Source: Patescibacteria group bacterium
GTDB lineage: Bacteria; Patescibacteriota; Minisyncoccia; UBA6257; 2-01-FULL-56-20
Direction of reading: 5' to 3'
DNA: 64,000 nucleotides
Assembly (NCBI GenBank): GCA_024654525.1
Contig: JANLHI010000030.1
Location: forward strand, 2,886 to 66,885
This document shows, piece after piece, positions 1 through 18,402 of the stretch (within the stretch, counting starts at the first letter, position 1; every line of letters begins with the position of its first letter). Position numbers and translations under genes: made by a program. The notes beneath the pieces are model-generated. The model worked only from the letters and a program-made list of their open reading frames with translations, was not told the DNA's origin and made no database searches.

Positions 1-479
1 GTAAGTAGGGTGTAAAGAGCAATAAAGATCCATGGCACCCATCGCTCTATTTTAGTGAATGGCCAATAGATCTCTTTATTTTTACCCCTACCCAGCATTT
101 CCCATTCCGTATCGTACAGTGCCAAAGGCAAACGAGCCTCGATCGCGTGAATAACCTGAAACTTACCTCCATTTAAGCCATCATAGGATCGGATTATTCG
201 ATACCATAAATAACACATTGTGATTCCAGCGATGGAAGCTGATATCAGAATTGAGACTATGTCGCCCCCATTCGTCTTAGTAGCCACAAATCCAAGCAGA
301 GCTACGAGAGCTGTGTTTAGCCCCAAGAAGAATTCGTTGGCTTTTTGCCTGCGATCGCTGATTTTTTCCGCCGAGGCTATATAAATTTTATACTGCTCCA
401 GAAGATGCTCGATATACCGGTCGCCGTATTTATCGCTGGCCGATACGAAGAGTATCTTCTGGATATCCTCAGGTTTCAT
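1..479 (-). CDS. 2-TM protein immediately downstream of the TIR-like gene, running off the window start. The start is MKPEDIQK; the two TM helices are FLGLNTALVALLGFVA and IVSILISASIAGITMCYLW. Possible SLATT-like or ThsA-like effector partner.
   Basis: Manual translation of the minus strand. The ATG sits directly after the TIR gene stop (TAGATG junction), there are two hydrophobic helices, and the ORF continues past position 1. Confidence 0.35.
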   Translation of the reverse strand, partial: MKPEDIQKILFVSASDKYGDRYIEHLLEQYKIYIASAEKISDRRQKANEFFLGLNTALVALLGFVATKTNGGDIVSILISASIAGITMCYLWYRIIRSYDGLNGGKFQVIHAIEARLPLALYDTEWEMLGRGKNKEIYWPFTKIERWVPWIFIALYTLL

Positions 480-854
480 CTAAAGTGAGTTTATGAAGTT
501 TGTTATGTTAGGCCATGTCCAGTGGTAAATCCGCCTACCACTCAATTCTGAAGGAATACGTTTAACTCCCTCGTCATGAATGTAAACCGGGAAAACGGGG
601 ATGCTTTCTTCGTACGCACATTTTATTTCCCAAAGAGCCCCATCGGCATTAATAGTGTTATCGCTCACAAAAGCCACAACACCATCGCAACTCTTGATTC
701 GTTCGCGACACTGAGTTTTCCAAGACGACGACCAAGGCTCTTTCACTGACATGTCCACAAAATCGAACGGGGTATTTTCCTGTTTCGACTGATACGTCAA
801 ATTATCTCGAGCAAACTTATCTTCCATTGCGAAACTGACAAAAATTCTTTTCAT
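480..854 (-). CDS. TIR-like domain protein (DUF1863 / Thoeris ThsB-like)
   Basis: 124 aa. N-terminal KRIFVSFAMEDKF and the W...SxWK...I...DGVVAFVSxNTxxSxWxxWEI pattern are typical of bacterial TIR-like DUF1863 proteins. Confidence 0.5.
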   Translation of the reverse strand: MKRIFVSFAMEDKFARDNLTYQSKQENTPFDFVDMSVKEPWSSSWKTQCRERIKSCDGVVAFVSDNTINADGALWEIKCAYEESIPVFPVYIHDEGVKRIPSELSGRRIYHWTWPNITNFINSL

Positions 855-1319: not shown

Positions 1320-1943
1320 TTAATAAAGATTTTTGGGAAGCGTTGCGACTACTACGCCTTGGACAACAAAATCCTCGGTTAAAATTATTGGCCTGTGTTC
1401 TTTGTCAGTGGAATTCGGTTTTAAGACAATGGATCCATTTTCACGATCATGATAAAGAAGCTTGATTGTCGCGTCGTTATTTATGAGAGCGACTATTCTT
1501 TCACCGTCTTCGGCAGTTGGTTGCTGTTTAATGAGAACCAAATCCCCGTCATTTATGCCGGATTTATTCATGGAGGTACCGACTGCGCGCAAAAGAAAAT
1601 AAGAATGGCCTGGCTTGGCGAAGCGGGTCGAGACATCAATTATGGCTTCGACATCCTGTTCGGCGAGCGAAGGCGATCCACAAGCCACCGATCCAACAAG
1701 CGGTACCTCCATAGTCCGATCTTCCATGGGTGATTCCATGTTTTGGGCGAGCTTAATAACGCCATTCGAATACGAAACCAGACCACGTTTCTTGAGGCGT
1801 TCCAGCATAAGCTGGACGGAGCGTGGCGAGGCATAACCAACAACCCTGCCTATTTCCCGGAGAGAAGGTGTTACGCCCGTGCTTAATACCTTGCCCCGAA
1901 GGAAAGCGTAGCCTTGAAGATCCTTTTTGTTTACTTGGTTCAT
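1320..1943 (-). CDS. lexA: LexA-type repressor (wHTH plus S24 peptidase). It may be the repressor of the adjacent phage-like module rather than the host SOS regulator.
   Basis: N-terminal LexA DNA-binding domain, an A-G cleavage region VACGSP, a GTSMN serine motif and a downstream Lys (IKLL). Confidence 0.85.
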   Translation of the reverse strand: MNQVNKKDLQGYAFLRGKVLSTGVTPSLREIGRVVGYASPRSVQLMLERLKKRGLVSYSNGVIKLAQNMESPMEDRTMEVPLVGSVACGSPSLAEQDVEAIIDVSTRFAKPGHSYFLLRAVGTSMNKSGINDGDLVLIKQQPTAEDGERIVALINNDATIKLLYHDRENGSIVLKPNSTDKEHRPIILTEDFVVQGVVVATLPKNLY

Positions 1944-1997
1944 CGGGATAAGTATACTGGATTGTCCACCTCTGTCAACCTATGCTAGGATATTGCC

Positions 1998-2636
1998 ATG
2001 GATACACCGCTTACCAGGCGGACAGTTGAAACCTACCTCCCCGTCTTACGGGCTATTTATGCATCCATTGAGGTTTCCGTTACAACCGCAAGTCGGCTGG
2101 AGAACAGGGACGACCTTTATTTCTTTTATCTGGGAAAAGAATTCGGAACCTCCAATATTTTACACACCACATATCTACTCAAACTTTGGCTGAAGGACTC
2201 TCGCGACTTCGAGATGAGGCCGATGATGTTCCACAAAAAGAATAGGAAAGCGAAGTGGGTCGACCTTATCAAATTGCTTGATGAAAAAATTACGGAATAT
2301 CACGACGGCGTCCCTATCATTGAGGTTGGTATCCATCGCAACGGGCGTGTCGTTCGAGAGTTTATGGGACAAAAACTTATTCATGACTTTGGAAGCGACG
2401 GGCTCAAAAGAAAAGTTGTATCTTATCTCGCTGGGCGCGGCAGTTTTACGAAAACTCCGGAAATCCAAAAGTATATCGGTTCGAAGAGTACCGAGTCCGC
2501 TGTGAAGGCAATTCGTTCTATCAACTCAACTCTTCGTTTGCGTCTCCAGTTTCCGAAGAAGCAAAAATTCATCGATAGTAAGCGGGGTTCCGGTTACGGC
2601 ATTAACCCGATTTACAACGTGGTTTTGTTGGATTAG
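1998..2636 (+). CDS. Hypothetical protein transcribed divergently from lexA
   Basis: 212-aa ORF with no recognisable motifs. It shares the divergent promoter region with lexA. Confidence 0.45.
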   Translation: MDTPLTRRTVETYLPVLRAIYASIEVSVTTASRLENRDDLYFFYLGKEFGTSNILHTTYLLKLWLKDSRDFEMRPMMFHKKNRKAKWVDLIKLLDEKITEYHDGVPIIEVGIHRNGRVVREFMGQKLIHDFGSDGLKRKVVSYLAGRGSFTKTPEIQKYIGSKSTESAVKAIRSINSTLRLRLQFPKKQKFIDSKRGSGYGINPIYNVVLLD

Positions 2637-2784
2637 ACGACCTCCCCGCATCCGGTGTGGATAACTATTTTTAGAACCTTGTTTTACAAGGTTTTTTTGT
2701 GTGGACAGTTCCAGATGTGTTCCATATAAGTCACGTTCCGAATAGGAGAAGATATAAAAGTCGAAAAAACAAAAAAATAAACCT

Positions 2785-4062
2785 ATGCCTGCACAAAAAC
2801 TTTCATGGAGGAACGAAGTGCGTCGGGTTTCGGATCTCGTGCCGAATCCGAAAAACCCTCGTTCCATCTCGCCGAAGCAGATGGAGGACTTGAAGCGCAG
2901 TCTCAAGAAATTCGGCCTGGTCGAATTGCCCGCGATAAACACTAACAACAGAATCTTGGCCGGACACCAACGCCTCCTCGCGCTCCAACTCCTCGGACGC
3001 GGTGACGAAAAGATTCCCGTTCGCGTGCCAACGCGCCCGCTCACAAAGAAGGAATACGATCAATATCTTCTGACCAGTAACCGCGTCCACGGTGAATGGG
3101 ATTATCAAATGCTCGCCGAGCAATTCGATGTCGAAATGCTCCTCGCCTCAGGCTTTGACGACGGGGATCTCTCGGTTATTTTCGACGATCTTCAAGTGGA
3201 AGACGACGAATTCGATCCGGAAAAAGAATTAAAGAAGATAAAGAAAACGGATGTGAAGCCGGGAAGTCTCTACCAACTGGGACCGCACCGTATTCTTTGT
3301 GGCGACAGCACCAATTCCGAAGTCGTCAAGAAACTCATGGGCGGCAAGAGTGCGGCGGTCATTCTCCAAGATCCCCCGTACAACATCGGTCTCAGCTATA
3401 ACAAAGGCATCGGCGGGAAAGGTAATTACGGCGGTGAAACGAACGACGCGAAGTCAGACGAAGAATATGAATCATTTCTCCGCAAAGCCCTTGCGAATGG
3501 CGTCGACGCCTGCGAGAAGGACGCACACGTGTTCACATACCACGATCCCCGCTACACCTGGCTTTTGCAAAAACTTTACAAAGAGCTGGGCATCGCGTAC
3601 AAGCGGACGTGTTTGTGGGTAAAAAATAATTCTACGCCCACACCTAACGTCGCCTTCAATCGCCAATATGAACCGGCGCTCTACGGCGTTATCGGGAAAC
3701 CGTATCTTTCGGAGCGATCATTCAATTTTTCCGAGATCTTAAACCGCGATGTTGGGATCGGTAATCGCACCATAGACGACATTTACGATTTGATAGACAT
3801 CTGGCTCGTAAAGCGGCTCGGCGGTTCGGAGTATGAGCATCCCACTGAAAAGCCGCCCATGCTGCACGAGCGGCCGCTGCGGCGTTGCACTAAGCCGGGA
3901 GATATCGTGCTTGATCTGTTCTCTGGTTCATCCAGTATTATGGTCGCTTGCCACGGGTTGAAGCGCATCGCGTATATGGTCGAACGCGAGCCGATTTTCG
4001 TTCAATTATCGCTAAACAGATATGCCAAACTTACGGGAGAAAAAGCAAAAAGGATCGCCTAA
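2785..4062 (+). CDS. ParB-like nuclease domain fused to an N6-adenine/N4-cytosine DNA methyltransferase (phage-type)
   Basis: N-terminal VPNPKNPR...ILAGHQRLLA matches a ParB N-terminal domain. The DPPY motif (ILQDPPYN) and C-terminal HPTEKP...DLFSGSSS (motif I) indicate a beta-class amino-MTase. Confidence 0.8.
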   Translation: MPAQKLSWRNEVRRVSDLVPNPKNPRSISPKQMEDLKRSLKKFGLVELPAINTNNRILAGHQRLLALQLLGRGDEKIPVRVPTRPLTKKEYDQYLLTSNRVHGEWDYQMLAEQFDVEMLLASGFDDGDLSVIFDDLQVEDDEFDPEKELKKIKKTDVKPGSLYQLGPHRILCGDSTNSEVVKKLMGGKSAAVILQDPPYNIGLSYNKGIGGKGNYGGETNDAKSDEEYESFLRKALANGVDACEKDAHVFTYHDPRYTWLLQKLYKELGIAYKRTCLWVKNNSTPTPNVAFNRQYEPALYGVIGKPYLSERSFNFSEILNRDVGIGNRTIDDIYDLIDIWLVKRLGGSEYEHPTEKPPMLHERPLRRCTKPGDIVLDLFSGSSSIMVACHGLKRIAYMVEREPIFVQLSLNRYAKLTGEKAKRIA

Positions 4063-4795
4063 GCCCGGCACGATCTGGCAGCTTGGCGATCATCGCTTGG
4101 CTTACGGCGACGCTCGCGACAAAGAGTTACTGAAGCGACTTATCGGCGTGGAGAAAATAAACCTTGTCTGTTGCGACGTTCCATACGGAGTGGATGTCGC
4201 AGCGTCAAAGCGCAACTTCCGCACGCTTTCTAAAGACAGAGATATTGCTAACGACCAATTGCAGTCGGACGACGAGTATCGGAAGTTTACAAGCGACTGG
4301 CTGCAGGCGGTATCGTCGTTTCTTGCCGCCAAAAACTCCGCCTACATATTTAATGCCGATAAGATGGTTTGGTCTTTGCGGGACGGCATGATTGATTCCG
4401 GTTTCAAGGTGGCCCAACTTCTTATTTGGATCAAATCTCAAGCAGTGGTAGGACGACTTGATTATTCTCCGCAGCACGAGCTTATCCTCTACGGCTGGCG
4501 CGGAACGCATAAATACCGCCGCTCAAAAGACAAAAGCGTCTTGTTCTATCCGCGGCCGTCGAAAAGCAAACTACATCCGACGACCAAACCCATTGGTCTT
4601 ATCCGGAGGCTTATTCTTAACTCCTCGGAAATCGGTGGTGCGGTCTACGACGGGTTTTTAGGCAGCGGTACTCTGCTTTTGGCTTGTGAGGAAACGCGCC
4701 GCAAATGCTTCGCAGTTGAGATTGATCCCGAGTATTGTCTCACGTCAATTTTCCAATGGGAGCGCCTGACCGGTAAAAAAGCAGAGCAGATATGA
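4022..4795 (+). CDS. DNA methyltransferase (N6A/N4C, beta-class)
   Basis: DVPY motif (CCDVPYGV) and HPTTKP...YDGFLGSGT motif I. It overlaps the upstream MTase by ~40 nt. Confidence 0.8.
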   Translation: MPNLREKKQKGSPKPGTIWQLGDHRLAYGDARDKELLKRLIGVEKINLVCCDVPYGVDVAASKRNFRTLSKDRDIANDQLQSDDEYRKFTSDWLQAVSSFLAAKNSAYIFNADKMVWSLRDGMIDSGFKVAQLLIWIKSQAVVGRLDYSPQHELILYGWRGTHKYRRSKDKSVLFYPRPSKSKLHPTTKPIGLIRRLILNSSEIGGAVYDGFLGSGTLLLACEETRRKCFAVEIDPEYCLTSIFQWERLTGKKAEQI

Positions 4796-5235
4796 AAAAG
4801 ACCGATCACATAAAAGAGCTGCTTATAGATCAGCTGCGCAGGACGCCAATCGTTGAGGCCGCTTGTCAGAAAGCGAACATTTCCCGCATGACGTTTTATC
4901 GTTGGAAAAATGAGGACAAAGAATTCGCAAAAAAGGTCGACGAGGCGCTTTCCGACGGGCAGCTTCTTGTGAACGATCTCGCCGAAAGCCAGCTTATTGG
5001 CGCGGTCAAAGATCGGAATTTTCAAGCGATTGCCTATTGGCTCAAACACCACCATCCGAGCTACAAAACGCGTATTGAAATCGAGGGAGCGCTCAACACC
5101 GTGCACGAACTTTCACCAGAACAAGAAAAACTTATGCGAAAAGCGTTTGAACTGGCAGGCATTAACATTGATGACTACGAAGAAGCACGAGATACGAGTC
5201 AAAAAAGTAACCAACTAAAACAAATCAATGAGTAA
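4792..5235 (+). CDS. Phage terminase small subunit-like HTH protein
   Basis: HTH ISRMTFYRWKNEDKEF, an ATGA overlap with the upstream gene, and a position directly upstream of TerL. Confidence 0.5.
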   Translation: MKKTDHIKELLIDQLRRTPIVEAACQKANISRMTFYRWKNEDKEFAKKVDEALSDGQLLVNDLAESQLIGAVKDRNFQAIAYWLKHHHPSYKTRIEIEGALNTVHELSPEQEKLMRKAFELAGINIDDYEEARDTSQKSNQLKQINE

Positions 5236-6712
5236 CAATTCTGACGACGATAAAAACGTTTTTGAAGCCATCGCAAAAGACCGCGTTCTTCGGCAGCAGC
5301 TTGGTCAGCGCAGCCATCACATGTTTTTCGTAATGTACTTTCCGCACTACATCAAATACCCCGTGGCGGAATTTCACAAAGATATTTTTCGCATCACCGA
5401 AGATCAGTCGACGAATCTTGCCTGCATCGTGGCGTTCAGGGGAAGCGGCAAGAGCACGCTAGTAACTTTTTCATATTCTCTCTGGTCGATCCTTGGCATC
5501 CAGCAAAAAAAGTTTGTCCTTATTATCTGTCAGACCCAAGCTCAGGCCAGACAGCACATGGCCAATCTCAAATTTGAGCTTGAGCAGAATACCCTCCTCA
5601 AAAGCGACATGGGACCGTTCCGCGAGGAAGCCGGCGACGGCCAGTGGGCCATATCGTCTCTTGTGTTCAAAAACACTGGAGCTCGGATAATGATCGCTTC
5701 AATAGATCAAAGTATTCGAGGTATTCGCCACCACGAATACCGCCCCGACCTTATCATTCTGGACGACATTGAGGACAGTAATTCCGTGAAAACCTTCGAG
5801 GGCCGCATCAAAATATCCGATTGGTTTTCCCGAGAGGTGGTGCCGCTCGGGGATATCGGAACTCGCATCATTCTCGTTGGCAACCTTCTTCACGAAGCCG
5901 CGCTTACGATAAGTCTCCGAAACAAAATTGACCGCAAAGAAATACGCGGCACCTACCGTTGGTTTCCGCTCATCGACGAAAGCGGAGCATGCCTGTGGCC
6001 AGGTAAATTTGATACGTCGGATAAAATTGAGGCTCTTCGTCAAAGCGTTGGCAACGAAATAGCCTGGCAGCAAGAGTATCTTCTCAATATTGTCTCTGAC
6101 AGCTCTCGTGTCATATTCCCGGAGTGGATTCGCTACTACGACGAGCTGCCCAGCGAAACATTGCGGAGTATCCACGTGGGCGTTGATCTGGCCATATCCC
6201 AGCGGGAAGGAGCCGATTTCACGGCAATGGTTGGCTTACGCCGCTATGGATACGGCAACACCATGCGTCTCTACGTGATTCCGAACCCGTTTAACAAGCG
6301 GGTGCCGTTTCCCGAAGTAGTGGCTACCATAAAAACTCTTGATCGAACGTTCAAAGCCAAAGGAGAGCATGCCAAATTCATTGTTGAGTCGAATGGTTTT
6401 CAAGAAATCTATGTGCACGCGGTAAGCGACAGCGGTTGCGACGTTAAGGGCGTAAAGCATACTGGGGACAAGCGTTCGCGACTGGCACTCACGAGCCAGC
6501 TTATTCAAAACGGTACGATTGTATTTCCGCGCCGTGGAGCGGAAGAACTTATCGCGCAACTCACGGGGTTTGGGGTAGAAAACCATGATGATTTGGCGGA
6601 TGGGTATAGCACCGCTGTACTCGATGTTATGAATGACATAGAAAACGACCGGGGTTGGGAGGCATGGATGCAGTGGGTGAAAAGCAATGGCGGAAGTTGT
6701 CAGATTAGGTAG
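5228..6712 (+). CDS. Phage terminase large subunit
   Basis: Walker A AFRGSGKST, Walker B LIILDDIED, and C-terminal RNaseH-like nuclease acidic motifs (VGVDLA, HDDLADG). Confidence 0.8.
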   Translation: MSNNSDDDKNVFEAIAKDRVLRQQLGQRSHHMFFVMYFPHYIKYPVAEFHKDIFRITEDQSTNLACIVAFRGSGKSTLVTFSYSLWSILGIQQKKFVLIICQTQAQARQHMANLKFELEQNTLLKSDMGPFREEAGDGQWAISSLVFKNTGARIMIASIDQSIRGIRHHEYRPDLIILDDIEDSNSVKTFEGRIKISDWFSREVVPLGDIGTRIILVGNLLHEAALTISLRNKIDRKEIRGTYRWFPLIDESGACLWPGKFDTSDKIEALRQSVGNEIAWQQEYLLNIVSDSSRVIFPEWIRYYDELPSETLRSIHVGVDLAISQREGADFTAMVGLRRYGYGNTMRLYVIPNPFNKRVPFPEVVATIKTLDRTFKAKGEHAKFIVESNGFQEIYVHAVSDSGCDVKGVKHTGDKRSRLALTSQLIQNGTIVFPRRGAEELIAQLTGFGVENHDDLADGYSTAVLDVMNDIENDRGWEAWMQWVKSNGGSCQIR

Positions 6713-6827
6713 GAATTACCGAGGGTATAGATGCTCCTTCTGCGTACTTGTTACCACCTTAATTGTCTTTCTTTTCATATTAGGATCCCACCACCCTAAA
6801 ATACAAAAATCTTTTTCAAAAGGGTGA

Positions 6828-7322
6828 TCATGCCGCCTTATTAAGCTTTTTCTTTCTAAGAAGAATATATGCAATGCCTAAAACTAAAGAGATGCCGAGA
6901 GGCGGAAGTGCGTACATTATAATACCGACAATGTTATATAAGATCGAGGCACTCGTATTTAGTGCATCAAATAACCACGGCACGATAAACTGATAGGAAA
7001 TATACATTAAAAACGCCCAAACCACTGCCTTGATAAAGTTATAAAGACCCCACAAACCCATCCCTTTTACCAAGATGTCATGCAATACCTTGTAGAAGCG
7101 AGCCATATACAGTAGGAATCCGAGCGTAAAAAACGTAAAAGCGCTATAGAAAGCTCGAACAAAGATGCTCGGCTGCTCAAACGGCTCGATCTGTTGCCAT
7201 TCAAAATGTATTCCCAAAACGAAGCGCCACAATAAAAACACTAACGCTAAAATGATATATGTCGATGCGGATCTAACAATATCATTTACATACTTCAATA
7301 TCGTTGCTTTATGCCACTTCAT
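6828..7322 (-). CDS. 4-TM membrane protein co-transcribed downstream of the ABC-ATPase
   Basis: 164 aa with four hydrophobic helices. Its start lies 5 nt after the ATPase stop. Confidence 0.45.
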   Translation of the reverse strand: MKWHKATILKYVNDIVRSASTYIILALVFLLWRFVLGIHFEWQQIEPFEQPSIFVRAFYSAFTFFTLGFLLYMARFYKVLHDILVKGMGLWGLYNFIKAVVWAFLMYISYQFIVPWLFDALNTSASILYNIVGIIMYALPPLGISLVLGIAYILLRKKKLNKAA

Positions 7323-7327
7323 TTTTA

Positions 7328-8791
7328 TTATTTACCGGCCTTTCTCTTGCCGTACTTTAATTCTCGAAGTGTACTTATAGATTTGACAAGATCTTCTGAC
7401 AAGAATTTACTATTCTTTGAATTTTCTGGATGATGGATAGAGTTACGAATGTATTTTGGCAGAGAAACGTTCTCTGTCTTGCTTAATTTATCATTGAACC
7501 ACTTTTCCGTTGTTGGAAGTCCGTTTAATTTACTTGGGTCAATATCTTCGAGATAGCCATACAGTTCGTTGTGGTAATCGTTTGTGGGTATACCGAATAC
7601 TTCGTAGTTCACTTCCGAATAGGAGCTATCCTTACCTTTGATTTGCTCAAGCTTTGTTTTCTTGTTGCCTTGTTTTACAACTCGGAAGCATCGGTCTATA
7701 TGGTCTTTGTCAATCATATAATTTGAGTGCGTTGCAAAAATGACAACGTTGTTCTCCTTATTCTTTGAGATCTTTATAAGTTCATTCCTCAAGTATTCCT
7801 GCGCTTGTGGGTGTAGGTGGGTTTCCGGCTCATCCAGCAGCAATAACGAATACGATAATTGATCAGTGGAGCTTTCTGCTGAAATTGTAAGAAGAAATGA
7901 TACGAATTGTCTGAATCCATCGCTTCTTTGGTTTGTTGTTTTAGAATCGTATTTTACTCCGACATCCTCAACCAAAAATGATAGCATCATGTTATTGATC
8001 TGAAATTTGATCTTGACCGGATGATTCTCCCACACCTTCTTGATGTGAGCAGTGACCTTATCTCCCAGCTTATCTTGGAGATCACTAACCTCGGCTGGAT
8101 CGGTCAACAGCTTACTTATGGCTGCTGGGATGTTTGCCTCATCAATACCTGCTAATCGAAAACAATTTAGCAGTGGGATTGATGTTTTCTCGGGTGCTGC
8201 AGAAAAAGCATTGAGATCAATTTGATCATTAATAAGGTATTCATTGGTTGATTTCCAAAAAGTGACGTGGTGTGAAATCTTCCAAAAGTAAGTCGGCAAG
8301 GTAGTTTCGAAATAAGTTTGAAGATTAAAATCATCTTGCGTTAGTTCCGGATTCTTCTTTATTGGTTTATCTCCCTCAAGAGTATAGTCGGGAAAAATGT
8401 GCGTCTTAAATTGGATACGATCAAAGTTTTTTCTTGCCGGTGTTGCTGTCGGCTCATAACCCACGCAAACATCTACCTCCTCAATCTGTATCTTTGAAAG
8501 CAGATCTTTTTCAAAGCCCTTTGCCTCAAGCTCCTTCTTCAGATTTTTCTCCTCGCTTACTTCTAGATTGTAGGTTAGTAAGACGCTGATCGGTTTTGAT
8601 TCGTTGAAATAATCTTTAGGAAACAAGACGTCGCCACTATCTACCAAAGAAACAGCTCTCAAAAAACTACTCTTTCCTGATTCATTGATACCAATGAGTG
8701 TGTAGGTTTTACCACCATGAATCTCTTCGACATTAAACGTTTCGTTTTCAATGCTCCTGAAGTTTTCGATTGTTATTTTTCTAATCTTCAT
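7328..8791 (-). CDS. SMC-head/ABC-type ATPase (AAA_15/21-like) with a C-terminal HEPN-like R-x4-H motif. PrrC/RloC-like anticodon-nuclease candidate.
   Basis: N-terminal ITIENFRSI...GINESGKSS (Walker A), LLLLDEPETHLHP (Walker B/D-loop) and ATHS (H-loop). The C-terminal tail contains KYIRNSIHHPEN. The gene is in a type I R-M locus. Confidence 0.55.
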   Translation of the reverse strand: MKIRKITIENFRSIENETFNVEEIHGGKTYTLIGINESGKSSFLRAVSLVDSGDVLFPKDYFNESKPISVLLTYNLEVSEEKNLKKELEAKGFEKDLLSKIQIEEVDVCVGYEPTATPARKNFDRIQFKTHIFPDYTLEGDKPIKKNPELTQDDFNLQTYFETTLPTYFWKISHHVTFWKSTNEYLINDQIDLNAFSAAPEKTSIPLLNCFRLAGIDEANIPAAISKLLTDPAEVSDLQDKLGDKVTAHIKKVWENHPVKIKFQINNMMLSFLVEDVGVKYDSKTTNQRSDGFRQFVSFLLTISAESSTDQLSYSLLLLDEPETHLHPQAQEYLRNELIKISKNKENNVVIFATHSNYMIDKDHIDRCFRVVKQGNKKTKLEQIKGKDSSYSEVNYEVFGIPTNDYHNELYGYLEDIDPSKLNGLPTTEKWFNDKLSKTENVSLPKYIRNSIHHPENSKNSKFLSEDLVKSISTLRELKYGKRKAGK

Positions 8792-8802
8792 ATATTTAGC
8801 GC

Positions 8803-11800: not shown

Positions 11801-11937
11801 TGCCCTTGATTCTCACGCCCCAAAAGAGCATCTCCTTCTTCGGAGTAGGCATTGATAAAATTCTTAACACCCCAAGGCTCCGCAAAAATCTTTACGGCTG
11901 TTTGCTCAATTAAATTGTTTTCAGAAAATTCATTCAT
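8803..11937 (-). CDS. hsdR: Type I restriction enzyme R subunit
   Basis: 1044 aa with a DEAH box (MVDEAHRTQ) and SF2 helicase motifs. It overlaps hsdS by 4 nt. Confidence 0.9.
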   Translation of the reverse strand: MNEFSENNLIEQTAVKIFAEPWGVKNFINAYSEEGDALLGRENQGQVVLVNRLKLALEKLNPDAPQEAIAQAITELTRDRSTASMVNANHDIYKLIKDGIKTEIRTEQGAFESINIRVFDFENAANNDFLLVSQMWITGELHKRRPDLIGFVNGLPLVLIELKASHKNLRNAYQENIRDYKDTIPQLFWHNGFIILSNGIETKVGTLTSAYEHFNEWKKIKSESEEGRVSLETVIKGTCEPSRLLDIIENFTLFDDSFRERVKAISRYFQLLGVNQAFDQIKNRDKNHGRLGVFWHTQGSGKSYSMIFLSQKVLRKMTGNFTFIVVTDRTELDRQIYKTFSACGAVYKEEVHADSILNLRQLLTEDHRHIFSLIHKFGTKPEEKPPVLSERSDIIVMVDEAHRTQYDRLAQNMRIAMPKAAFIGFTGTPLMAKGEEKTRETFGDYVSTYNFAQSVEDGATVPLYYENRVPKLENENPEIQKDLEKVMDFYELSTDEEEKLEQEFSTFYHLITREDRLNKVAEDIVTHFTARGYDGKAMVVSIDKKTAIRMYAKVKAEMQRHLAKMNIAVTKAKDDHEKEMLREQVQKYENIDMAVVVSQSQNEIADMEEFEIDMRPLRARILNEDLETKFKDPDSNLRIVFVCAMWMTGFDVPNLSTLYLDKPLKNHTLMQTIARANRVYPNKTNGLIVDYIGVFRNLQKALAVYASTKDGDDEIIKDKNELVEILFATVAKTRQFLKTLELDINDLLEAKDVEKIRLVDVFTNRILQNEKTKQRYLDLAGDAYKYYKAVLPEPKAEDYYHEVTAYKVIASRIREVIDEDTNVSQVKKDLENLLDRSIRAGEYVIKDVPKLKDLSKIDFEVLRKFFDDSDTQNIEAEALSAELEEKIKEMVRKNKLRKHFLDRLNKLLHEYNTGSHDLDAFFNQLVELAKELSDEDRRAVSENLTEEELAVFDILRKENLNPSEIDQVKKVAKELLARLKQEKLVLDWKKKEETRADVKVTIAKILYDELPEPTYTDPDCEDRTQKVYFHVYDNYVDTKVNVYA

Positions 11938-13247
11938 ATATTTATATTGCCGGTAACAAGCTTAGACAGTAAAGCGTCTTTGGAGTTTGATAATGAATCC
12001 ATTTGCTTATTTAAATTCAGCCCTAAATCTATAAGTGCGCTGACTAAATTCTCATATTCAGTTACTAATGAGATAGGAGGTAAAACCATTTTTAAATTCA
12101 GTGTCTGCACGGGACTTAAATTTTGTTGTGCCACACCATTTGAAAGCAATTCGAGTTTTTTCTTAAAAGATTCCGATCGAAAAAGTGAATATACAAAACT
12201 CTTATACACCGCATCTTTTGGAACGATCTTTCCTACGCGCTGGTTGAGCAGGAGATTTTCACCGTAAACAATGCAAACGCGTCCAACATTTCCGGTTAAT
12301 GACAGCAAAATATCACCATCGTTGAGTCGGCAATGATCCGGCATTTTTGGGGGAATTTCGGCAATGTAGTTAAAATCGGAAATAAATTTACCATCATGTA
12401 TATTTTTTATTGTTATGATTCTGTATAGCCCTGTTGTAACATAATCTTTCCCCTTAAAAGCATGGCCAGATTTAATATCCAAAATTGATTCTAAATTACA
12501 AATTTTCCATCCTTCTGGGATCTTCCCAAATTCGGTACCGCTATCAACCATTTTAATTTTCTCGTGATTGGGAAAGCGATAATTTACGAACCATTCAGTG
12601 TAAATAACCTGCATCATCAGCTCCAATATCTTGATCCGGCGAGTGTTATTTTCGATAAGATCATCATAAGGAGATAGATGATTAACGATACTCTCTTGAA
12701 CCTGAATCGGTGGAAGTGACAATTCGATATTCAAAAGATCCGACACTTTTACGCTTGGTTGAGCGGCGCCTCGATCCAATTCGGTTATCTTGTTTTTATT
12801 GAAAAATAGAAAATAATATAAAAACTCGTTTAAGCAACCCTTGCCGCATCTTATGCCTATTGTATTTTGAATTATCACACTCTTTTTCTTAGGTGCTAGA
12901 GCAACATTCCCAAAACCATTACCAACAAGTGTTACAAGAACATCCTTCTCTTTGAGGTATTTTCTTATAAAATCGTGAAATGTTTTTTCATCAATAAATC
13001 TTCTTGCGTTTGCTAAAGCCACGGATCTCGTACCAGTTATCAGGAAATTATCGATAACGGGAATTCCTTCATTATAAAAAGCTTGTGGATTTTTCCCTCT
13101 GTTATCAACAATGTAATCTACCAAAGCACTTAGCTTTGTATTATTCCAATTATTTTTTGCAGCAGTGATGGTCATATCAGAATAACTTTCCAAAATTCTT
13201 GCTAATTTTATTCTCAAGACCATGCGCTTCTTCTGTGAGCTTCTCAA
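11934..13247 (-). CDS. hsdS: Type I R-M specificity subunit. The real start is probably Met25 (MTITAAK, ~13175).
   Basis: Two target-recognition-domain repeats with conserved central and C-terminal coiled regions. It lies between hsdM and hsdR. Confidence 0.85.
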   Translation of the reverse strand: MRSSQKKRMVLRIKLARILESYSDMTITAAKNNWNNTKLSALVDYIVDNRGKNPQAFYNEGIPVIDNFLITGTRSVALANARRFIDEKTFHDFIRKYLKEKDVLVTLVGNGFGNVALAPKKKSVIIQNTIGIRCGKGCLNEFLYYFLFFNKNKITELDRGAAQPSVKVSDLLNIELSLPPIQVQESIVNHLSPYDDLIENNTRRIKILELMMQVIYTEWFVNYRFPNHEKIKMVDSGTEFGKIPEGWKICNLESILDIKSGHAFKGKDYVTTGLYRIITIKNIHDGKFISDFNYIAEIPPKMPDHCRLNDGDILLSLTGNVGRVCIVYGENLLLNQRVGKIVPKDAVYKSFVYSLFRSESFKKKLELLSNGVAQQNLSPVQTLNLKMVLPPISLVTEYENLVSALIDLGLNLNKQMDSLSNSKDALLSKLVTGNINI

Positions 13248-14703
13248 GCTCTGTATTTATCCCTCGTACAGTCGTTTCAAAATCGACGTCGCTTACGTTC
13301 TCATTATCTGCTGCGCCAACATATCGACCAGAATTTAAGGAATAACCAGCCGCGCGCACTTCTTCAAGGGCGGCTACCTTGCAAAGCCCCTTAATATCTG
13401 TGTATTTCTTTATACCTTCTCCGCGATAGCTACGCACGATATCGGCTATTTGCTGTATCTGTTCCTCCGTCCAGTCGCGATGCGCGCGATCAATTTGATG
13501 GTAGATATTTCGCGCATCAATGAAAAGAATTTTATCCTTGCGATCAGTTTTCTTTTTACCTTTGTCTAGGAACCACAAGGTAACTGGCAAGGTGACGTTG
13601 TAGAACATGTTTGATCCTACGGCGACCATTACATCAACCACGCCATCATCAATCATTTTTGCGCGAATATCCTTTTCGCTGTGTCCGGCATCGCTTGCAG
13701 AGTTAGCCATAACAAAACCAGCACGACCAGTATTTTTTAATGCACTCAAGAAAATCTGAATCCAAAGAAAGTTTCCATTATCAGTGCGAGGCAAGCCATG
13801 CGGAAAGCGAGGATCATCTTTAATGCGCTCCTTGTCGATACCATTCACGTTGAAAGGAGGATTCGCCATAGCGAAGTCAAACTTCCCAAGTGAACGATGT
13901 AGATCTTCGTAGTAGGTATTGCCTTGTTTGATATCACCGGATAGACCGTGAATCGCAAGGTTCATCTTTGCAATGCGAACCGTTTGGTCAGTTTTCTCTT
14001 GACCGTAGATAGATACTTCACGCGCCGCTTTTAACTTCTTTCCTTTCTCAAAATGACGCTTGATGAACTCAACAGATTGCACAAACATACCACCGGATCC
14101 GCAGGCAGGATCGTAAATATATCCCTTGAACGGCTCAAGAATTTCGACGATCAGCTTAACAATAGAAGTCGGTGTGAAGAACTCACCACCGCCTGATCCG
14201 TCTGCGATGGCGAACTTACCCAAGAAGTATTCATAAATAAGACCGAAGGCATCACCTTCAATCGTGTCCGGAATCTGATTGAAATTTTTGAGAAGTGAGA
14301 TGATAGCTGAATTTTCCAGCAAGTTGTAATTCTTCGGTAGGATACCAGCAAGCTCTTTGTTTTCTCCTTCAATAGTTTTCATCGCATCATTTACTGCCTT
14401 ACCCATGTTTGTACCTTCAGGAAGGGTTATGAGATGTGAGTAGTGAGCGCCTTCAGGAATATACAAAACGCCACGAGAGTGATAATCCTCGGGCGTGATA
14501 GGACGCTGGCGCTTGGATGTTGCTTTTGCACGCTCTGCCTCAAGATCCTTTTTAGCGGCGATAAATTTAACGTCGGCAAACTTCAAGAAGATAAGCCCCA
14601 AAACCGGTTCGGCAAACTCATTCAAGCGAAGCGCAGAATTAGCGCGGAGATGATCCGCCGCTTCCCACAATCTACTCTCGAGTTGTTTGGTATCTGATGA
14701 CAT
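13177..14703 (-). CDS. hsdM: Type I R-M N6-adenine methyltransferase subunit
   Basis: N-terminal HsdM_N domain (LWEAADHLR), an NPPF motif (ANPPFNV), and the SAM-binding motif GKFAIADGSGGGEFFTP. Confidence 0.9.
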   Translation of the reverse strand: MSSDTKQLESRLWEAADHLRANSALRLNEFAEPVLGLIFLKFADVKFIAAKKDLEAERAKATSKRQRPITPEDYHSRGVLYIPEGAHYSHLITLPEGTNMGKAVNDAMKTIEGENKELAGILPKNYNLLENSAIISLLKNFNQIPDTIEGDAFGLIYEYFLGKFAIADGSGGGEFFTPTSIVKLIVEILEPFKGYIYDPACGSGGMFVQSVEFIKRHFEKGKKLKAAREVSIYGQEKTDQTVRIAKMNLAIHGLSGDIKQGNTYYEDLHRSLGKFDFAMANPPFNVNGIDKERIKDDPRFPHGLPRTDNGNFLWIQIFLSALKNTGRAGFVMANSASDAGHSEKDIRAKMIDDGVVDVMVAVGSNMFYNVTLPVTLWFLDKGKKKTDRKDKILFIDARNIYHQIDRAHRDWTEEQIQQIADIVRSYRGEGIKKYTDIKGLCKVAALEEVRAAGYSLNSGRYVGAADNENVSDVDFETTVRGINTELEKLTEEAHGLENKISKNFGKLF

Positions 14704-14706
14704 AAG

Positions 14707-14952
14707 TTATTTTTGGCTTTGTTTAAGAAATTTTAATATGTCTTCTTTCTTATAGCGTCTATCCCGCCGACTTCCAAAACGCATTGCTTTTAATATGCCA
14801 CGGTTGTCCCACTTGCGGAGAGTATTAGGATGACAATTCAGAATCTCGCAGGCCTGTTGAAGCGTGAGAATATCGGGCATCTGTTTTATTTTAGGGCGCT
14901 GTTTTTTCATAAAAGCATAACTTAACACAAGTTTACACGACAATTTAAGCAT
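14707..14952 (-). CDS. Excisionase/MerR-type HTH DNA-binding protein. The start is probably the internal Met (MKKQRPK, ~14910).
   Basis: The segment LTLQQACEILNCHPNTLRKWDNRGIL is a Xis-family HTH. It is adjacent to the serine recombinase. Confidence 0.5.
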   Translation of the reverse strand: MLKLSCKLVLSYAFMKKQRPKIKQMPDILTLQQACEILNCHPNTLRKWDNRGILKAMRFGSRRDRRYKKEDILKFLKQSQK

Positions 14953-15042
14953 TGTAAAGAGCTTTTAAGGGGTTTTGGTTGCCTACGGGTTATCAACTAC
15001 CCCGTCTGGACTCCCTAGCGGGTTTGCGTCATCTCTTAGGGT

Positions 15043-16380
15043 ATGACCAACCAAACTACAGGGCCGGTGGGAGCTGTGGCCCAAACACAAATCCAGCTTC
15101 CCATAAAGGTCAAATACGTGCTCTATGCGAGGAAAAGCACGGAAAGCGAGGAACAGCAGATCCTTTCCATAGACAGCCAGATCAAGGAGATGCTCCAGAT
15201 GGCCGAACGTGACCATCTGGAGGTGGTAGAGATCAAGAAAGAGTCGCACTCGGCAAAGGAAGCGGGGCAACGTCCAGTGTTCAATGAGATCGTCGATGAA
15301 ATCAAAAGTGGCAAATTCAACGGAATACTTACATGGGCGGCAGACCGTATATCGAGAAACGCCGGAGACCTCGGAAGAATCGTGGACCTCATGGACAGCG
15401 GAAAGTTGATTGAGATACGCACCTACGGGCAGAAGTTCACCAACAGCCCGAACGAGAAGTTCCTCCTTATGATATTGGGCTCGCAGGCTAAGCTCGAGAA
15501 CGACAATAAGGTGGTGAATGTGAAGCGCGGGTTAAGGGCGCGATGCGAGATGGGGCTATGGCCATGCACGGCACCGACGGGATACCTGAACAGCACGATT
15601 AAGGAGAAAAGCTGCCATGTAGAAATTGATCCCCACAGGGCTCCCATGATTAAGAAGATGTTTGAGAAAGTGGCCTACGAGAACATGAGCGGGCGACGGC
15701 TTCACGCATGGCTCAAGGACGAGGCTAAGTTCCGGGTAAGGAGTGGCAAGCCGCTCACGATCAGCAATATATACATCACTCTGCGAAATACTTTCTACTA
15801 CGGCTCATTCGAATATCCGAGAGGCGGTGGGCAGTGGTATGCCGGGAAGCATATGCCCATCATCACCAAGGAACTCTTCGACAAGGTGCAGGAGAAAATG
15901 GCTAACTATGCGGTGCGCGGGGAAACAAAGGAATTCGCCTTCACGAAACTCATGACCTGCGGACTATGCGGATCTGGTATCACGGCCGATGAGAAATTCA
16001 AGAAACAACAAAATGGCAATGTACACAGGTACGTCTACTACGGTTGCTGCCGGTTCCAGGATAAGAACTGCAAATCGGGATATATGCGAGAAGAAGATCT
16101 GATCGAGCAGCTCGCAAAGCTGATGGATAAAATTGACCTCGATGAGATCGGCATGAAGGAGCGGATTAAAATTGAAATCGAACGGCACAAGAAATTCCAG
16201 TCGGGACTTTTGGGGATAAAGGAAAAGACGATCAAAGTCGGCGACATTGACGTGCGAAATTACGCGAAGTACGTGTTGCGAGACGGAACGATACTTGAGA
16301 AGCGAGAGTTGTTATCTTGCCTGCGTAGTAAGGTGACGATGGCGGAGAGAGAAGTGAAGATTGCTCAAGCTAAGACTTAA
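15043..16380 (+). CDS. Serine recombinase (resolvase N-terminal domain plus recombinase and zinc-ribbon domains)
   Basis: Catalytic region YARKSTESEEQQ...SIDSQ, ADRISRN, and a C-terminal CGLCGS...YYGCCRFQDKNC zinc ribbon. Confidence 0.8.
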   Translation: MTNQTTGPVGAVAQTQIQLPIKVKYVLYARKSTESEEQQILSIDSQIKEMLQMAERDHLEVVEIKKESHSAKEAGQRPVFNEIVDEIKSGKFNGILTWAADRISRNAGDLGRIVDLMDSGKLIEIRTYGQKFTNSPNEKFLLMILGSQAKLENDNKVVNVKRGLRARCEMGLWPCTAPTGYLNSTIKEKSCHVEIDPHRAPMIKKMFEKVAYENMSGRRLHAWLKDEAKFRVRSGKPLTISNIYITLRNTFYYGSFEYPRGGGQWYAGKHMPIITKELFDKVQEKMANYAVRGETKEFAFTKLMTCGLCGSGITADEKFKKQQNGNVHRYVYYGCCRFQDKNCKSGYMREEDLIEQLAKLMDKIDLDEIGMKERIKIEIERHKKFQSGLLGIKEKTIKVGDIDVRNYAKYVLRDGTILEKRELLSCLRSKVTMAEREVKIAQAKT

Positions 16381-16470
16381 AAAGGCTTTGCCTGCATTTA
16401 TCAAATCGACATCTTCGAGTTTTACATATTGGATCAGTGTGACTTACAATAACGAAAACAAGAAATACTC

Positions 16471-17175
16471 ATGTACATTAAAAATATCAACAAAAGGCAA
16501 TTTATTTGCTTCACTCAAAACGAGTTATCTTCGCTTTATAAAGCAGCAAAGTTAAAGCAACTTATGCAGGAAATGAGCGCGAGAGGTGTCACATTGAAAG
16601 ACTTGGCGGGCAATCACTCTAGGATGGAGGAAATCGCTAACATGGTTGGCGACCGAGGGGCGGCAGACCGAGACGAACACGAGATTTTCGCTGGTCTCTT
16701 TGTGTTCGCCCAATTTTATGGAAATGATAGTGAAATATGCTTCGAGCTGCAGGACTCATTCAGTCCACAAAGAGATAGGATTGTATCTCTGGCCGATCTG
16801 ATTAATCTAAGGAAAACAGACACTGAATCCGATTTTATGATTAAGGCAGAAGATGGATTTAGAGATTTTCAGTTGAAGCGTTATCGTGGCCCGCTTCAAA
16901 CGCAGGCGATCCTCGATTTCATTATTGGAGTGGTGCGACACTATGGAAATAATTTAGGCGACACGAATTTGCTTATACAGCTTCAGTCTCCGTCTTACAC
17001 CCACATGGACGCCGACTTTCACGATTTGCACAACCAGATAGCATCGATCGGTTTTCCTTTCTTGGGGCAAGTTCTAGTTTCTTACAACGACAACAATAAA
17101 AGCCAGGCAATTATTCAAGTACATCCCAAATTGACGAAAACAGAAATCCCGTTATTACTCCCAAGCCAACGATGA
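16471..17175 (+). CDS. Hypothetical protein, first gene of a two-gene cassette
   Basis: 234-aa ORF with an ATGA overlap to the downstream gene. No recognisable motif. Confidence 0.4.
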   Translation: MYIKNINKRQFICFTQNELSSLYKAAKLKQLMQEMSARGVTLKDLAGNHSRMEEIANMVGDRGAADRDEHEIFAGLFVFAQFYGNDSEICFELQDSFSPQRDRIVSLADLINLRKTDTESDFMIKAEDGFRDFQLKRYRGPLQTQAILDFIIGVVRHYGNNLGDTNLLIQLQSPSYTHMDADFHDLHNQIASIGFPFLGQVLVSYNDNNKSQAIIQVHPKLTKTEIPLLLPSQR

Positions 17176-17912
17176 CTTGTAAACTTTGCCTACAGGATAA
17201 ACAGCTCCTGAAAAAATCTCATATTATTCCGAACTTTATGTACGGCGACCTTTTCGACGGCGATCATAGTCTGTTCAAAGTTCGCCTTTCTGATTGGAGT
17301 AAGCAGAAGCTTCAGACAGGGGAATACGAGGCGAATATCCTTTGTGCTAATTGTGATAACAAGCTTATTGGTGGATTAGAAAATTATGCCTGCCAGGTAC
17401 TCTATGGAGGGAAAATTAATGGCGTAGAAATGCGCAATGAGATAAACCAAAATGGTGTCGAGTTCACTTATGCAAAAGGCATAGACTATAAAAAGTTTAA
17501 GCTATTCCTTTTATCATTAGTGTGGCGGTGCAGTATCTCGAAAAGAGTTTTTTACAAGCAAGTTGAACTGGGACAAAAGCACGAAGAAACGATAAGGGCG
17601 ATGATCTACGGTGGCGATCCAGGAAAACAAATGGATTATCCATGCTTTATTAGTTCCTATCGAAAACACAACGAATTGCCAGCGAAAGTAATAAGCCAGC
17701 CGACTAAATTTCGCCATGACGGTGGCGTTGCTTATTCGATTATCCTCGGAGGTATTGTCTATATGTATTACATTTCGAAGCACTCTGTCCCACAGGTAAT
17801 ATCCGAAACGGTCATCAATGAGCACGGCGAACTGAAAATTGTGCATATGCCACTTGACCAAGCAAAAAATCTTCTGAACCACTACACACAACATAGGGTT
17901 TTCCCCGTTTAG
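17172..17912 (+). CDS. HNH-like nuclease candidate
   Basis: N-terminal CKLC...SHIIP......NILCANCDNK resembles the Cx2C-HIxP...N...Cx2C(H/D) HNH core. Confidence 0.35.
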   Translation: MTCKLCLQDKQLLKKSHIIPNFMYGDLFDGDHSLFKVRLSDWSKQKLQTGEYEANILCANCDNKLIGGLENYACQVLYGGKINGVEMRNEINQNGVEFTYAKGIDYKKFKLFLLSLVWRCSISKRVFYKQVELGQKHEETIRAMIYGGDPGKQMDYPCFISSYRKHNELPAKVISQPTKFRHDGGVAYSIILGGIVYMYYISKHSVPQVISETVINEHGELKIVHMPLDQAKNLLNHYTQHRVFPV

Positions 17913-17997
17913 GCAAAAACCAGTCAATAGATTGATCGGTTATGGAAACACGGGAGACCGGGCTTTCCAAGCCCGCTCGGTCGGTCTCACATGCCTG

Positions 17998-18069
17998 TGC
18001 CCTCGAGAGGAATCGAACCTCTATCTTCACGTTAGGAGTGTGAAGCTCTATCCATTGAGCTACGAGGGC
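17998..18069 (-). tRNA. tRNA-Arg(CCT)
   Basis: Cloverleaf folded by hand: acceptor GCCCTCG/CGAGGGC, anticodon loop CTCCTAA, T-arm AGAGG-TTCGATT-CCTCT. Its 3' end faces the island. Confidence 0.75.
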
Positions 18070-18183
18070 ATATATAGCGTACTTATTCAATTTATCATTG
18101 CAGAAAGTTCTTTATGAAGCAAACCACCTTTCTTTAATGAATGTATTACAATATAGAAGAACGTATTTACTCTATCCGAATAT

Positions 18184-18402
18184 ATGCGACACCATCTTCA
18201 AAAATTTCACGATCGTATTTCCGAGAAGTATCCGCGGTTTAAGTTCGCAATAGGAATCTTTTTTATACTCTTTGGATTGCTTGCATTAGTCACGCCACTC
18301 ACGCCCGGATCATGGCTTGCGCTTGTGGGGCTTGAGCTTATTGGCATCCGCGTACTCACGGGGAAGTGGTGGGGAAAATTCTTTTCAAAATCTAAAAAAT
18401 AA
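18184..18402 (+). CDS. Small membrane protein
   Basis: 72 aa with two hydrophobic helices. Confidence 0.3.
   Translation: MRHHLQKFHDRISEKYPRFKFAIGIFFILFGLLALVTPLTPGSWLALVGLELIGIRVLTGKWWGKFFSKSKK

Follow-up and report, generated by a model that had tools for sequence, protein, structure and literature searches.

A 64,000-nt stretch of DNA (hereafter the window) from a Patescibacteria metagenome-assembled genome (MAG; GenBank assembly GCA_024654525.1, contig JANLHI010000030.1, positions 2,886 to 66,885) carries at its left end, up to a tRNA-Arg(CCT) gene at 18 kb, one member of a family of mobile islands of the Candidate Phyla Radiation (CPR, or Patescibacteria) that is widespread and seemingly undescribed. 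The same compact, phage-derived backbone of ~7 kb recurs at at least 100 loci, nearly all of them in CPR bacteria, with 44-88% identity. It consists, in this order, of an S24/LexA-like or ImmR/ImmA regulator, a small variable open reading frame (ORF), a ParB-methyltransferase, the small and large terminase subunits (TerS and TerL) and a large serine recombinase. From this architecture, which we observe directly, we infer that the element is most likely a phage satellite that encodes its own complete terminase and would package its own DNA into the procapsids of a helper phage, a reading to which we give somewhat better than even credence.

A conserved backbone across CPR genomes

We surveyed GTDB, with one genome per species, by a TerL-profile scan that returned 181 relatives. 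The best 80 of these were examined and are almost all Patescibacteria MAGs, complete chromosomes included. In IMG/VR, a scan with the single TerL sequence gave no match and an alignment-based TerL profile did; relatives from both sources are referred to by locus labels (L001 and so on). All ORFs of the first 24 kb of the window were then clustered with those of 87 loci. The families found in more than 12 loci were TerL (83), the methyltransferase (78), the recombinase (65), TerS (41, an underestimate due to the ORF picker), the repressor (34) and a 135-amino-acid (aa) ORF that sits at the first operon position (28), and no other gene family was common to more than 12 of the ~88 loci. The order of one or two methyltransferases, TerS, TerL, an interval of 0-8.7 kb and the recombinase was essentially invariant across the GTDB loci examined. 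Loci without a LexA-like gene have an ImmA protease and helix-turn-helix (HTH) pair, or a small HTH protein, in the place of the repressor. Pfam identified ImmA/ImmR-like genes at this position in L170, a close relative with a TerL 88% identical to that of the window, and their sequences suggest the same for some other loci.

The IMG/VR relatives show the same organization. Roughly 23 contigs carry the methyltransferase, TerS and TerL, most with a visible recombinase; their TerLs are 38-62% identical to that of the window, and at least 44% identical in all but two cases. Two of the loci, L004 and L007, reproduce the order of the window (repressor, ParB-methyltransferase, TerS, TerL, recombinase) at 41-57% identity with different cargo. 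The closest recombinase relative, 88% identical at the amino acid level, is found at L001/L002. The full contig that comprises L173 and L002 (IMGVR_UViG_3300032024_000414) is 26.1 kb long, with the methyltransferase, TerS and TerL at 0.5-4.4 kb and ~20 kb of cargo between the terminase module and the recombinase. L002 had been considered as a member without a terminase module; this idea was dropped, as the remaining 4.7 kb of its contig encodes the methyltransferase, TerS and TerL. To the left of the methyltransferase, this contig contains no repressor ORF of at least 70 aa.

Judged by its recurrence in these sequences, the reduced gene set is a conserved architecture rather than a product of decay. 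Some genomes hold more than one copy: L044 and L045 (MAG CAZRXW01), and likewise L056 and L067 (MAG CAZIZK01), are two different members within one genome of the ~1-Mb class. In L025, L026, L041, L044, L045, L051 and L064, further serine recombinase genes are found upstream of the backbone, a sign that elements may lie in tandem or next to one another.

A large part of bacterial diversity belongs to the CPR bacteria, which have genomes of ~1 Mb and few CRISPR systems, and we know of hardly any work on their mobile elements. Full-text literature searches turned up neither an account of such elements in CPR bacteria nor one of satellites with TerS and TerL but without capsid genes. PMC6509639, citing Dudek et al. 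2017, reports on a complete Saccharibacteria 'phage' in which no capsid protein could be identified; this may be a prior sighting of the family.

A terminase clade without head genes

In a neighbour-joining tree of 168 TerLs, all 86 recombinase-linked sequences fell into one clade of 111 tips that holds no portal-linked member, and all 37 portal-linked TerLs lay outside it. The Walker A (R-G-S-x-K-S-T) and Walker B (DDxE) motifs and the acidic residues of the nuclease were invariant in 109 of 109 TerLs of this clade. The nearest TerLs outside the clade, at no more than 40% identity, belong to ordinary phages: the IMG/VR contigs that carry them have no recombinase and, according to PHROG matches, encode a portal (a MuF-like fusion), a protease/scaffold and a major capsid protein (MCP) after TerL. 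Among named phages, the best match of the window TerL was to the D3112/JBD24 group, at 27% identity.

When the portal, protease and MCP of these nearest phages were used as tblastn queries, they matched 39 IMG/VR contigs, none of the 80 CPR genome loci and nothing anywhere in the 64-kb window. A first-pass annotation of the window, made from the sequence alone, had reported that no capsid or portal genes follow the terminase, and the searches bear this out. No structural genes or remnants of them were found in the window, where the homology search covered head genes and not those for tails or lysis, and all island ORFs of at least 60 aa are accounted for. As far as sequence comparison can tell, the genes shared by members of the family include none for heads, tails or lysis.

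Collectively, the recurrence of the backbone, the capsid-less clade and the invariant motifs point to an old, stable lifestyle under purifying selection rather than to repeated decay. Of the two descriptions offered by the first-pass annotation, a satellite-like island that is not an intact prophage agrees with the absence of head genes and with a conserved, capsid-less family. The other, a degraded prophage, is not supported in view of at least 100 conserved loci, invariant TerL catalytic residues and a monophyletic clade without a capsid-linked member. Nine members (L066, L075, L085, L091, L095, L097, L098, L101 and L111) have two tandem TerL genes before the recombinase, each 44-50% identical to the window TerL and with the catalytic motifs kept in both copies.

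Integration at the 3' ends of tRNA genes

In the window, the recombinase lies 1.6 kb from tRNA-Arg(CCT), the 3' end of which points towards it. The same arrangement was found in 22 of the 22 GTDB loci with a downstream tRNA, in which the first tRNA past the recombinase lies 105-8,090 nt away on the opposite strand with its 3' end towards the element; these tRNAs are Ser, Gln, Asn, Trp and Glu isoacceptors. L007 has a tRNA-Trp beside nusG in the same 3'-facing arrangement. In L001/L002, ~70 nt past the recombinase, 27 nt are identical to window positions 17976-18002, the 3' junction of tRNA-Arg(CCT), and the sequences to the left of CTCGGTCGGTCTCACATGCCTG are unrelated between the two.

Repeats mark the far end of the element in several relatives. 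L026, L034, L046 and L068 each carry there a 15-25-nt repeat that starts exactly at the tRNA 3' terminus, and L059 has a 24-nt direct repeat straddling the terminus. The far copy is located 3-4 kb left of the repressor in L034, L046 and L068, and ~5.7 kb left of the methyltransferase gene in L026, which has no LexA-like gene. The left copy in L034 is preceded by a terminator hairpin, and a cell-surface protein is encoded there; housekeeping genes for inositol monophosphatase, isochorismatase, uridine kinase and a thioredoxin-reductase-like protein lie left of the repeat in L046 and L068. Element sizes deduced from the repeat pairs are 13.6-17.2 kb. The facing tRNAs and the repeats of relatives therefore support the tRNA as the attachment (att) site at the level of the family. 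The first-pass annotation had expected the att site at this tRNA 3' end, and the 27-nt junction, the 22 facing tRNAs and the repeats of five relatives all agree with it.

For the window element itself, the repeat search found no copy of the tRNA 3' end within the 64 kb, and a search of the window and all loci with the tRNA 3'-end and junction motifs matched only the junction of L001/L002. We attribute the missing repeat to an element that continues past the left edge. The first-pass annotation had placed the left limit at position 1320; to the left of this position, however, genes for a TIR protein and an 8xMP-family membrane protein (3-854) are co-oriented with the repressor, and the same pair is found in L034 and L170, and therefore the element runs off the window. 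An uninterrupted site was also looked for in related genomes. The metagenome contig L169 has tRNA-Arg(CCT) (97% identity) directly beside a homologue (82% aa identity) of orf72, the gene on the right flank of the island in the window, and no island gene in 12 kb; the orientation of the tRNA to orf72 is inverted. L169 therefore lacks the island, but at a rearranged site that is not a clean attB. In detail (L169:11770-12028 against window 17997-18402), the 3' end of the L169 tRNA lies 38 nt from the start of orf72, whereas in the window the tRNA 5' end faces orf72; this inversion may be recombinase-mediated or an older rearrangement.

The composition of the element is foreign. GC content is 0.49 in the segment from repressor to TerL and 0.50 in the recombinase, compared with 0.42 in both cargo segments and 0.43 in the host, which confirms the unevenness described by the first-pass annotation. 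In the scan suggested at that stage, tetranucleotide deviation stood at z = 4-13 across 1-18 kb and dropped right of the tRNA, to 1.2-2.8 in scan intervals spanning 16.5-21 kb and to 0.4 from 19.5 kb; the region of 1-18 kb is thus deviant and the sequence beyond the tRNA is near host level. Related genomes with the same gene order could have lacked tRNA linkage and repeats, with uniform composition; what we found instead was linkage, repeats and deviant composition.

Several features of the att region stand apart from these results. In several of L034, L046, L068 and L059, the tRNA 3' end is directly flanked, on the side of the element, by a palindromic CTCGTGCTAGCACGAG-like motif, and the window and L001/L002 carry CTCGGTCGGTCTCACATGCCTG at the corresponding place; both motifs may be recombinase or packaging sites. 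Positions 1-30 of L173 begin with GTGCCCCCGCTCGGTCTCGACC, which resembles a tRNA 3' end, and positions 26100-26125 end in ...CTCGGTCGGTCTCACATGCCTGTGCCC, and therefore GTGCCC and a CTCGGTC..TCTC motif are present at both ends of this IMG/VR provirus in direct orientation. A tRNA-Ser to which ARAGORN assigned the unusual anticodon ACT lies at the att end in L022 (18974-19059), L047 (13972-14061), L056 (19210-19297) and L058 (18878-18967), and three of these four loci (L022, L047 and L056) also have a tRNA-Ser(GCT) nearby. Downstream of TerL and on the opposite strand, a pair of tRNA-Arg(TCT) and tRNA-Phe genes was found in L007 (13941-14092, equal to L100:3741-3892) and L023 (12534-12682). The pair is 68 nt from TerL in L007/L100, inside the element before the cargo and recombinase, and ~1 kb from it in L023; it may represent element-borne tRNAs or a nested integration.

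Defence cargo in three hotspots

Cargo is found in three slots: behind the repressor (hotspot i), between TerL and the recombinase (hotspot ii) and between the recombinase and the tRNA (hotspot iii). Among the Pfam domains of 141 cargo proteins in hotspots ii and iii, those of type I, III and IIG restriction-modification (R-M) systems came first; the others included Shedu, SNase nucleases, reverse transcriptases (RTs) with bAvd, and metal ATPases. The island had been described at first sight as a carrier of defence genes, and the type I R-M system and TIR protein of the window, together with the R-M-led cargo of its relatives, fit that description.

In hotspot i, the TIR and 8xMP pair of the window (3-854) recurs at L034:5794-6819 and L170:9112-9996, and L041 has an 8xMP and a TIR match; elsewhere this slot holds caspase and TIR or TIR and membrane-protein pairs. 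The ThsA partner (a SIR2/SLOG or Macro effector) that a Thoeris system would have is absent, and the neighbour of the window TIR is the 8xMP membrane protein. This recurrent combination of TIR and an octameric 8xMP-family protein looks like a two-gene defence pair of TIR plus membrane effector.

In 29 of 55 loci, hotspot ii is empty (no more than 300 nt); its content in the rest amounts to 0.8-8.7 kb, and L173/L002 have ~20 kb there. All 55 loci have TerL and the recombinase co-oriented and in a constant order. The window carries here a complete type I R-M system (HsdR, HsdS and HsdM) in one operon, and in L001/L002 its place is taken by a type III R-M system together with Mrr and other genes. 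Between L011 and the window, HsdM and HsdR are 80% and 73% identical, whereas TerL and the recombinase are 65% and 59% identical, from which it follows that cargo moves independently of the backbone. An OLD/AriA/GajA-like ABC ATPase and a 164-aa multi-pass membrane protein (6828-8791) are appended to the type I operon. The ATPase (7328-8791) matched only ATPase regions, with no Toprim domain, and the pairing typical of OLD, Gabija or PARIS was not found. As cargo in L054, L079, L081, L065, L088 and L002, an RT stands beside a bAvd-like four-helix protein (clusters c10 and c24), suggesting that modules resembling diversity-generating retroelements (DGRs), or defence-associated RT modules, travel on the elements.

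The HTH protein next to the recombinase had been called Xis-like. It is indeed an HTH protein, of the HTH_17 family, but an excisionase role is not borne out, as in the window, L011 and L047 its gene opens the operon of the type I R-M system. The protein is 75-80% identical between the window, L031, L047 and L074, where it occurs at different hotspots, and it leads unannotated large ORFs in L074 and L031. It may be a controller linked to R-M or other cassettes rather than an excisionase.

The two ORFs of hotspot iii (16471-17912), which are missing from L001/L002, where the recombinase abuts the junction, had been labelled HNH-like. A Cys/His motif (CxxC..SHIIP..CxxC) is indeed present in the 246-aa ORF (17172-17912), and beyond it the label found no support in Pfam, PADLOC or folds in the PDB. 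The region 16471-17912 matched phrog_19960 and neither Pfam nor PADLOC. The 246-aa protein has 303 homologues, none with a Pfam domain and with differing upstream partners; its AlphaFold2 (AF2) model (pLDDT 93.5) had no fold match in the PDB, and its sole match in BFVD was an uncharacterised phage protein.

Gene map of the window

The window was annotated with ARAGORN, Pfam, PHROG and PADLOC (Table 1), which reproduced the gene order and nearly all of the genes listed in the first-pass annotation. Two island ORFs have identical protein entries in NCBI, NUV53_03050 and NUV53_03115, both assigned to a Patescibacteria MAG. The LexA-like gene (1320-1943, minus strand) and the operon that starts at 1998 (plus strand) form a divergent switch, a layout shared by 34 loci. 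Judging from its sequence, the repressor has its catalytic motifs, GTSM and IKLL, intact, together with a cleavage-site region, VACGSP. For the first operon gene (1998-2636), no match was obtained in Pfam, PHROG or PADLOC, only four homologues were found, and AF2 gave no usable model (pLDDT 34). The methyltransferase, TerS and TerL ORFs overlap by 4-41 nt, in the manner of an operon. None of the backbone ORFs has a replication domain recognised by Pfam, PHROG or PADLOC; the first operon gene stays unannotated, and a novel initiator is possible. The sole recombinase is of the large serine type, with all three diagnostic domains (Resolvase, Recombinase and zinc ribbon), and there is no tyrosine recombinase family among the recurrent gene clusters of the family.

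Table 1 Features of the island and its borders in the 64,000-nt window
Feature	Positions	Strand	Evidence and remarks
8xMP-family membrane protein, cut by the window edge	3-479	-	Clusters with L034:5794-6321 (PF24838 8xMP, E=9e-43); hotspot i
TIR (ThsB-like) protein	480-854	-	PF08937, E=1.4e-7; PADLOC ThsB, E=1.8e-5; hotspot i
LexA-type S24 repressor	1320-1943	-	Peptidase_S24, E=7e-24; LexA_DNA_bind, E=7.5e-10
Divergent intergenic region between repressor and operon	1944-1997		Regulatory by position only
First operon gene, 212 aa, unannotated	1998-2636	+	Variable slot across the family
ParB-domain N6/N4 DNA methyltransferase (backbone)	2785-4062	+	PF01555, E=4e-25; phrog_498, E=4e-90; ParB-like PHROGs
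Second DNA methyltransferase (backbone; optional in the family)	4022-4795	+	PF01555, E=4e-26; in a subset of loci
TerS	4792-5235	+	PHROG TerS families, E=1.6e-9 and 3.3e-8; conserved upstream of TerL
TerL, intact	5228-6712	+	phrog_38, E=3.6e-69; PHROG only, no Pfam match
Cargo hotspot ii	6721-15004	-	L170 homology ends at 6720; L001/L002 homology begins at 15005
Multi-pass membrane protein, 164 aa	6828-7322	-	Hotspot ii
AAA_15/OLD-like ATPase	7328-8791	-	AAA_15, AAA_21; ATPase parts of PADLOC Old, AriA and GajA; hotspot ii
HsdR	8803-11937	-	Type I R-M; hotspot ii
HsdS	11934-13247	-	Type I R-M; Methylase_S matched in two stretches; hotspot ii
HsdM	13177-14703	-	Type I R-M; hotspot ii
HTH_17 protein	14707-14952	-	Hotspot ii
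Large serine recombinase (integrase)	15043-16380	+	Resolvase PF00239, Recombinase PF07508, Zn_ribbon_recom PF13408
Cargo hotspot iii slot	16401-17975		Two ORFs, 16471-17175 (234 aa) and 17172-17912 (246 aa), both +
Sequence CTCGGTCGGTCTCACATGCCTG at the element end, probably the arm of attR on the side of the recombinase	17976-17996		Identical in L001/L002
tRNA-Arg(CCT), 3' end facing left, attachment site (attR)	17997-18069	-	ARAGORN; family-wide linkage to tRNA 3' ends

A satellite life cycle and its alternatives

As a phage satellite, the element would pass through the following cycle. In the resting state, the repressor would silence the operon and would be co-transcribed with the defence genes behind it, much as lambda cI is with rexAB. 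DNA damage or a signal from the helper would inactivate the repressor, here through S24 self-cleavage, after which the recombinase would excise the element and the methyltransferases would pre-methylate its DNA. The holoenzyme formed by its own TerS and TerL would recognise the packaging site of the element and load the DNA into procapsids of a co-resident helper phage. A likely type of helper would be the nearest-outgroup TerL lineage, whose head genes (portal-MuF, protease and MCP) are Mu-like. On arrival in a new cell, the element would be integrated at a tRNA by the recombinase. Given the Mu-type TerL, direct packaging from the integrated state is a further possibility.

Several points weigh against this cycle. 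No replication gene was recognised in the backbone; phage-inducible chromosomal islands (PICIs), P4 and the PICI-like elements (PLEs) all have one. Neither a helper phage nor a circular or excised form was identified, capsid-derived reads were not seen, and none of the retrieved contigs carries terminal direct repeats. A capsid of the 40-60-kb class would be under-filled by elements of 14-26 kb unless multimers or flanking DNA were packaged, and direct repeats of 15-25 bp are atypically long for serine integrases. The far att site of the window element lies outside the window, the sole related contig (L169) has the tRNA inverted rather than a clean empty site, and the survey was anchored on TerL and not on the recombinase.

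Among other explanations, we consider it unlikely, although worth serious thought, that the family consists of integrative defence islands that are not satellites, are spread by transformation or generalised transduction, and keep the terminase for interference with phage packaging or for another nuclease or ATPase role of benefit to the host. The cargo is mostly defence genes, and neither a replication module nor a helper was identified. DNA uptake is commonly ascribed to CPR bacteria, and the packaging proteins of PICIs interfere with helper packaging. However, TerS, TerL and the methyltransferases placed together under a repressor resemble a packaging programme rather than constitutive defence, and all motifs of the ATPase and the nuclease are kept. 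Distinctly improbable is a complete unconventional virus, or a system like a gene transfer agent, with structural genes that are too divergent to recognise among the cargo or that lie elsewhere in the chromosome. Such a system would be in keeping with the many unannotated ORFs in the cargo and next to the backbone, and with the Saccharibacteria 'phage' without an identified capsid protein that is reported in PMC6509639. No further gene family, however, is found in more than 12 of the ~88 loci, TerL is directly followed by the recombinase in 29 of 55 loci, and head genes are missing from the 64-kb window; in L073 and L079, moreover, the tRNA lies within 105-221 nt of the recombinase, which leaves no space for a virion module.

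Two explanations that treat the window as an accident carry very little weight. In one, a terminase-bearing phage remnant and a separate island of serine recombinase and R-M genes at the tRNA are neighbours by chance, as might be thought from the 8.3 kb of opposite-strand cargo that part TerL from the recombinase in the window and from the differing GC content of the segments. We regard this as highly improbable: the gap between the two genes is no more than 300 nt in 29 of 55 loci with constant strand and order, the TerL segment and the recombinase are alike in GC content (0.49 and 0.50, compared with 0.42 in cargo), and the closest recombinase relative also has a terminase module, 20 kb upstream. 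In the other, which we find even harder to credit, a temperate phage, once complete, was stripped of the genes for its head, tail and lysis, and defence genes gathered in it passively. The packaging genes and the ParB-methyltransferase are clearly of phage ancestry, the order of methyltransferase, TerS and TerL is also found in real phages, and the window has no structural genes. Against decay stand the recurrence of the same minimal set in at least 100 loci of 44-88% identity, free of structural remnants, the invariant TerL catalytic residues, the single capsid-less TerL clade and, in relatives, intact att repeats.

Implications and comparison with known systems

A single family in at least 181 species-level genomes, some with two copies, that holds R-M, TIR, Shedu and DGR-like cargo in fixed hotspots would explain how CPR bacteria acquire and exchange phage defence. 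It also provides a natural collection of large serine recombinases that target tRNA genes and whose att sites can be inferred. If the satellite reading is true, the family may use a new route to parasitise phages, in which the satellite brings a whole terminase and nothing else. The TerL clade with its adjacent serine recombinase would be a marker for finding the helper phages of CPR bacteria, and the family would be a test of satellite biology in a phylum with few cultured systems. We propose only tentatively, with slightly less than even confidence, that this is the first phage-satellite family reported from CPR/Patescibacteria, with a strategy new for satellites: one with a complete TerS and TerL and methyltransferases, without genes for capsids, replication or size redirection, with a tRNA-targeting serine recombinase, and serving as a major vehicle of R-M and other defence genes.

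Several known systems share parts of this organization. Like the PICIs and SaPIs, the elements are site-specifically integrated islands (~10-20 kb in PICIs) in which a repressor and an operon form a divergent switch, TerS is of phage origin, genes for virions and lysis are lacking and defence cargo is frequent. PICIs, however, have a tyrosine integrase in place of the large serine recombinase, a primase/replicase-ori module where the present family has no recognisable replicase, and only TerS, with TerL borrowed from the helper, where the present family has both subunits; the host phylum here, CPR, also differs. Capsid-forming PICIs (cfPICIs) likewise encode their own TerS and TerL, and their packaging is independent of the helper terminase. 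They also encode an MCP, portal, protease and connector, none of which was found in the window or the 80 genome loci.

Mu-like and D3112-like phages share a TerL of phrog_38 but are complete phages, of which the present family keeps only the methyltransferase, TerS and TerL, with no transposase seen. Serine recombinases also move other islands. The staphylococcal cassette chromosome (SCC, with ccrAB) is a cargo island at the 3' end of a conserved gene, often with R-M systems and without a transfer apparatus of its own; it differs in having no terminase, methyltransferase or repressor module and in targeting rlmH rather than tRNA genes. The PLEs of Vibrio cholerae (PMC5481146) are phage satellites that are integrated and excised by a large serine recombinase. 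They have a replication initiator and no TerL, integrate in chromosomal repeats rather than tRNA genes and bear no sequence relationship to the family. P4-like satellites, finally, have a tyrosine integrase, a primase and genes for capsid size and helper control, and rely on the cos packaging of the helper with no terminase of their own, but they share with the present family a conserved backbone with variable defence cargo in fixed hotspots.

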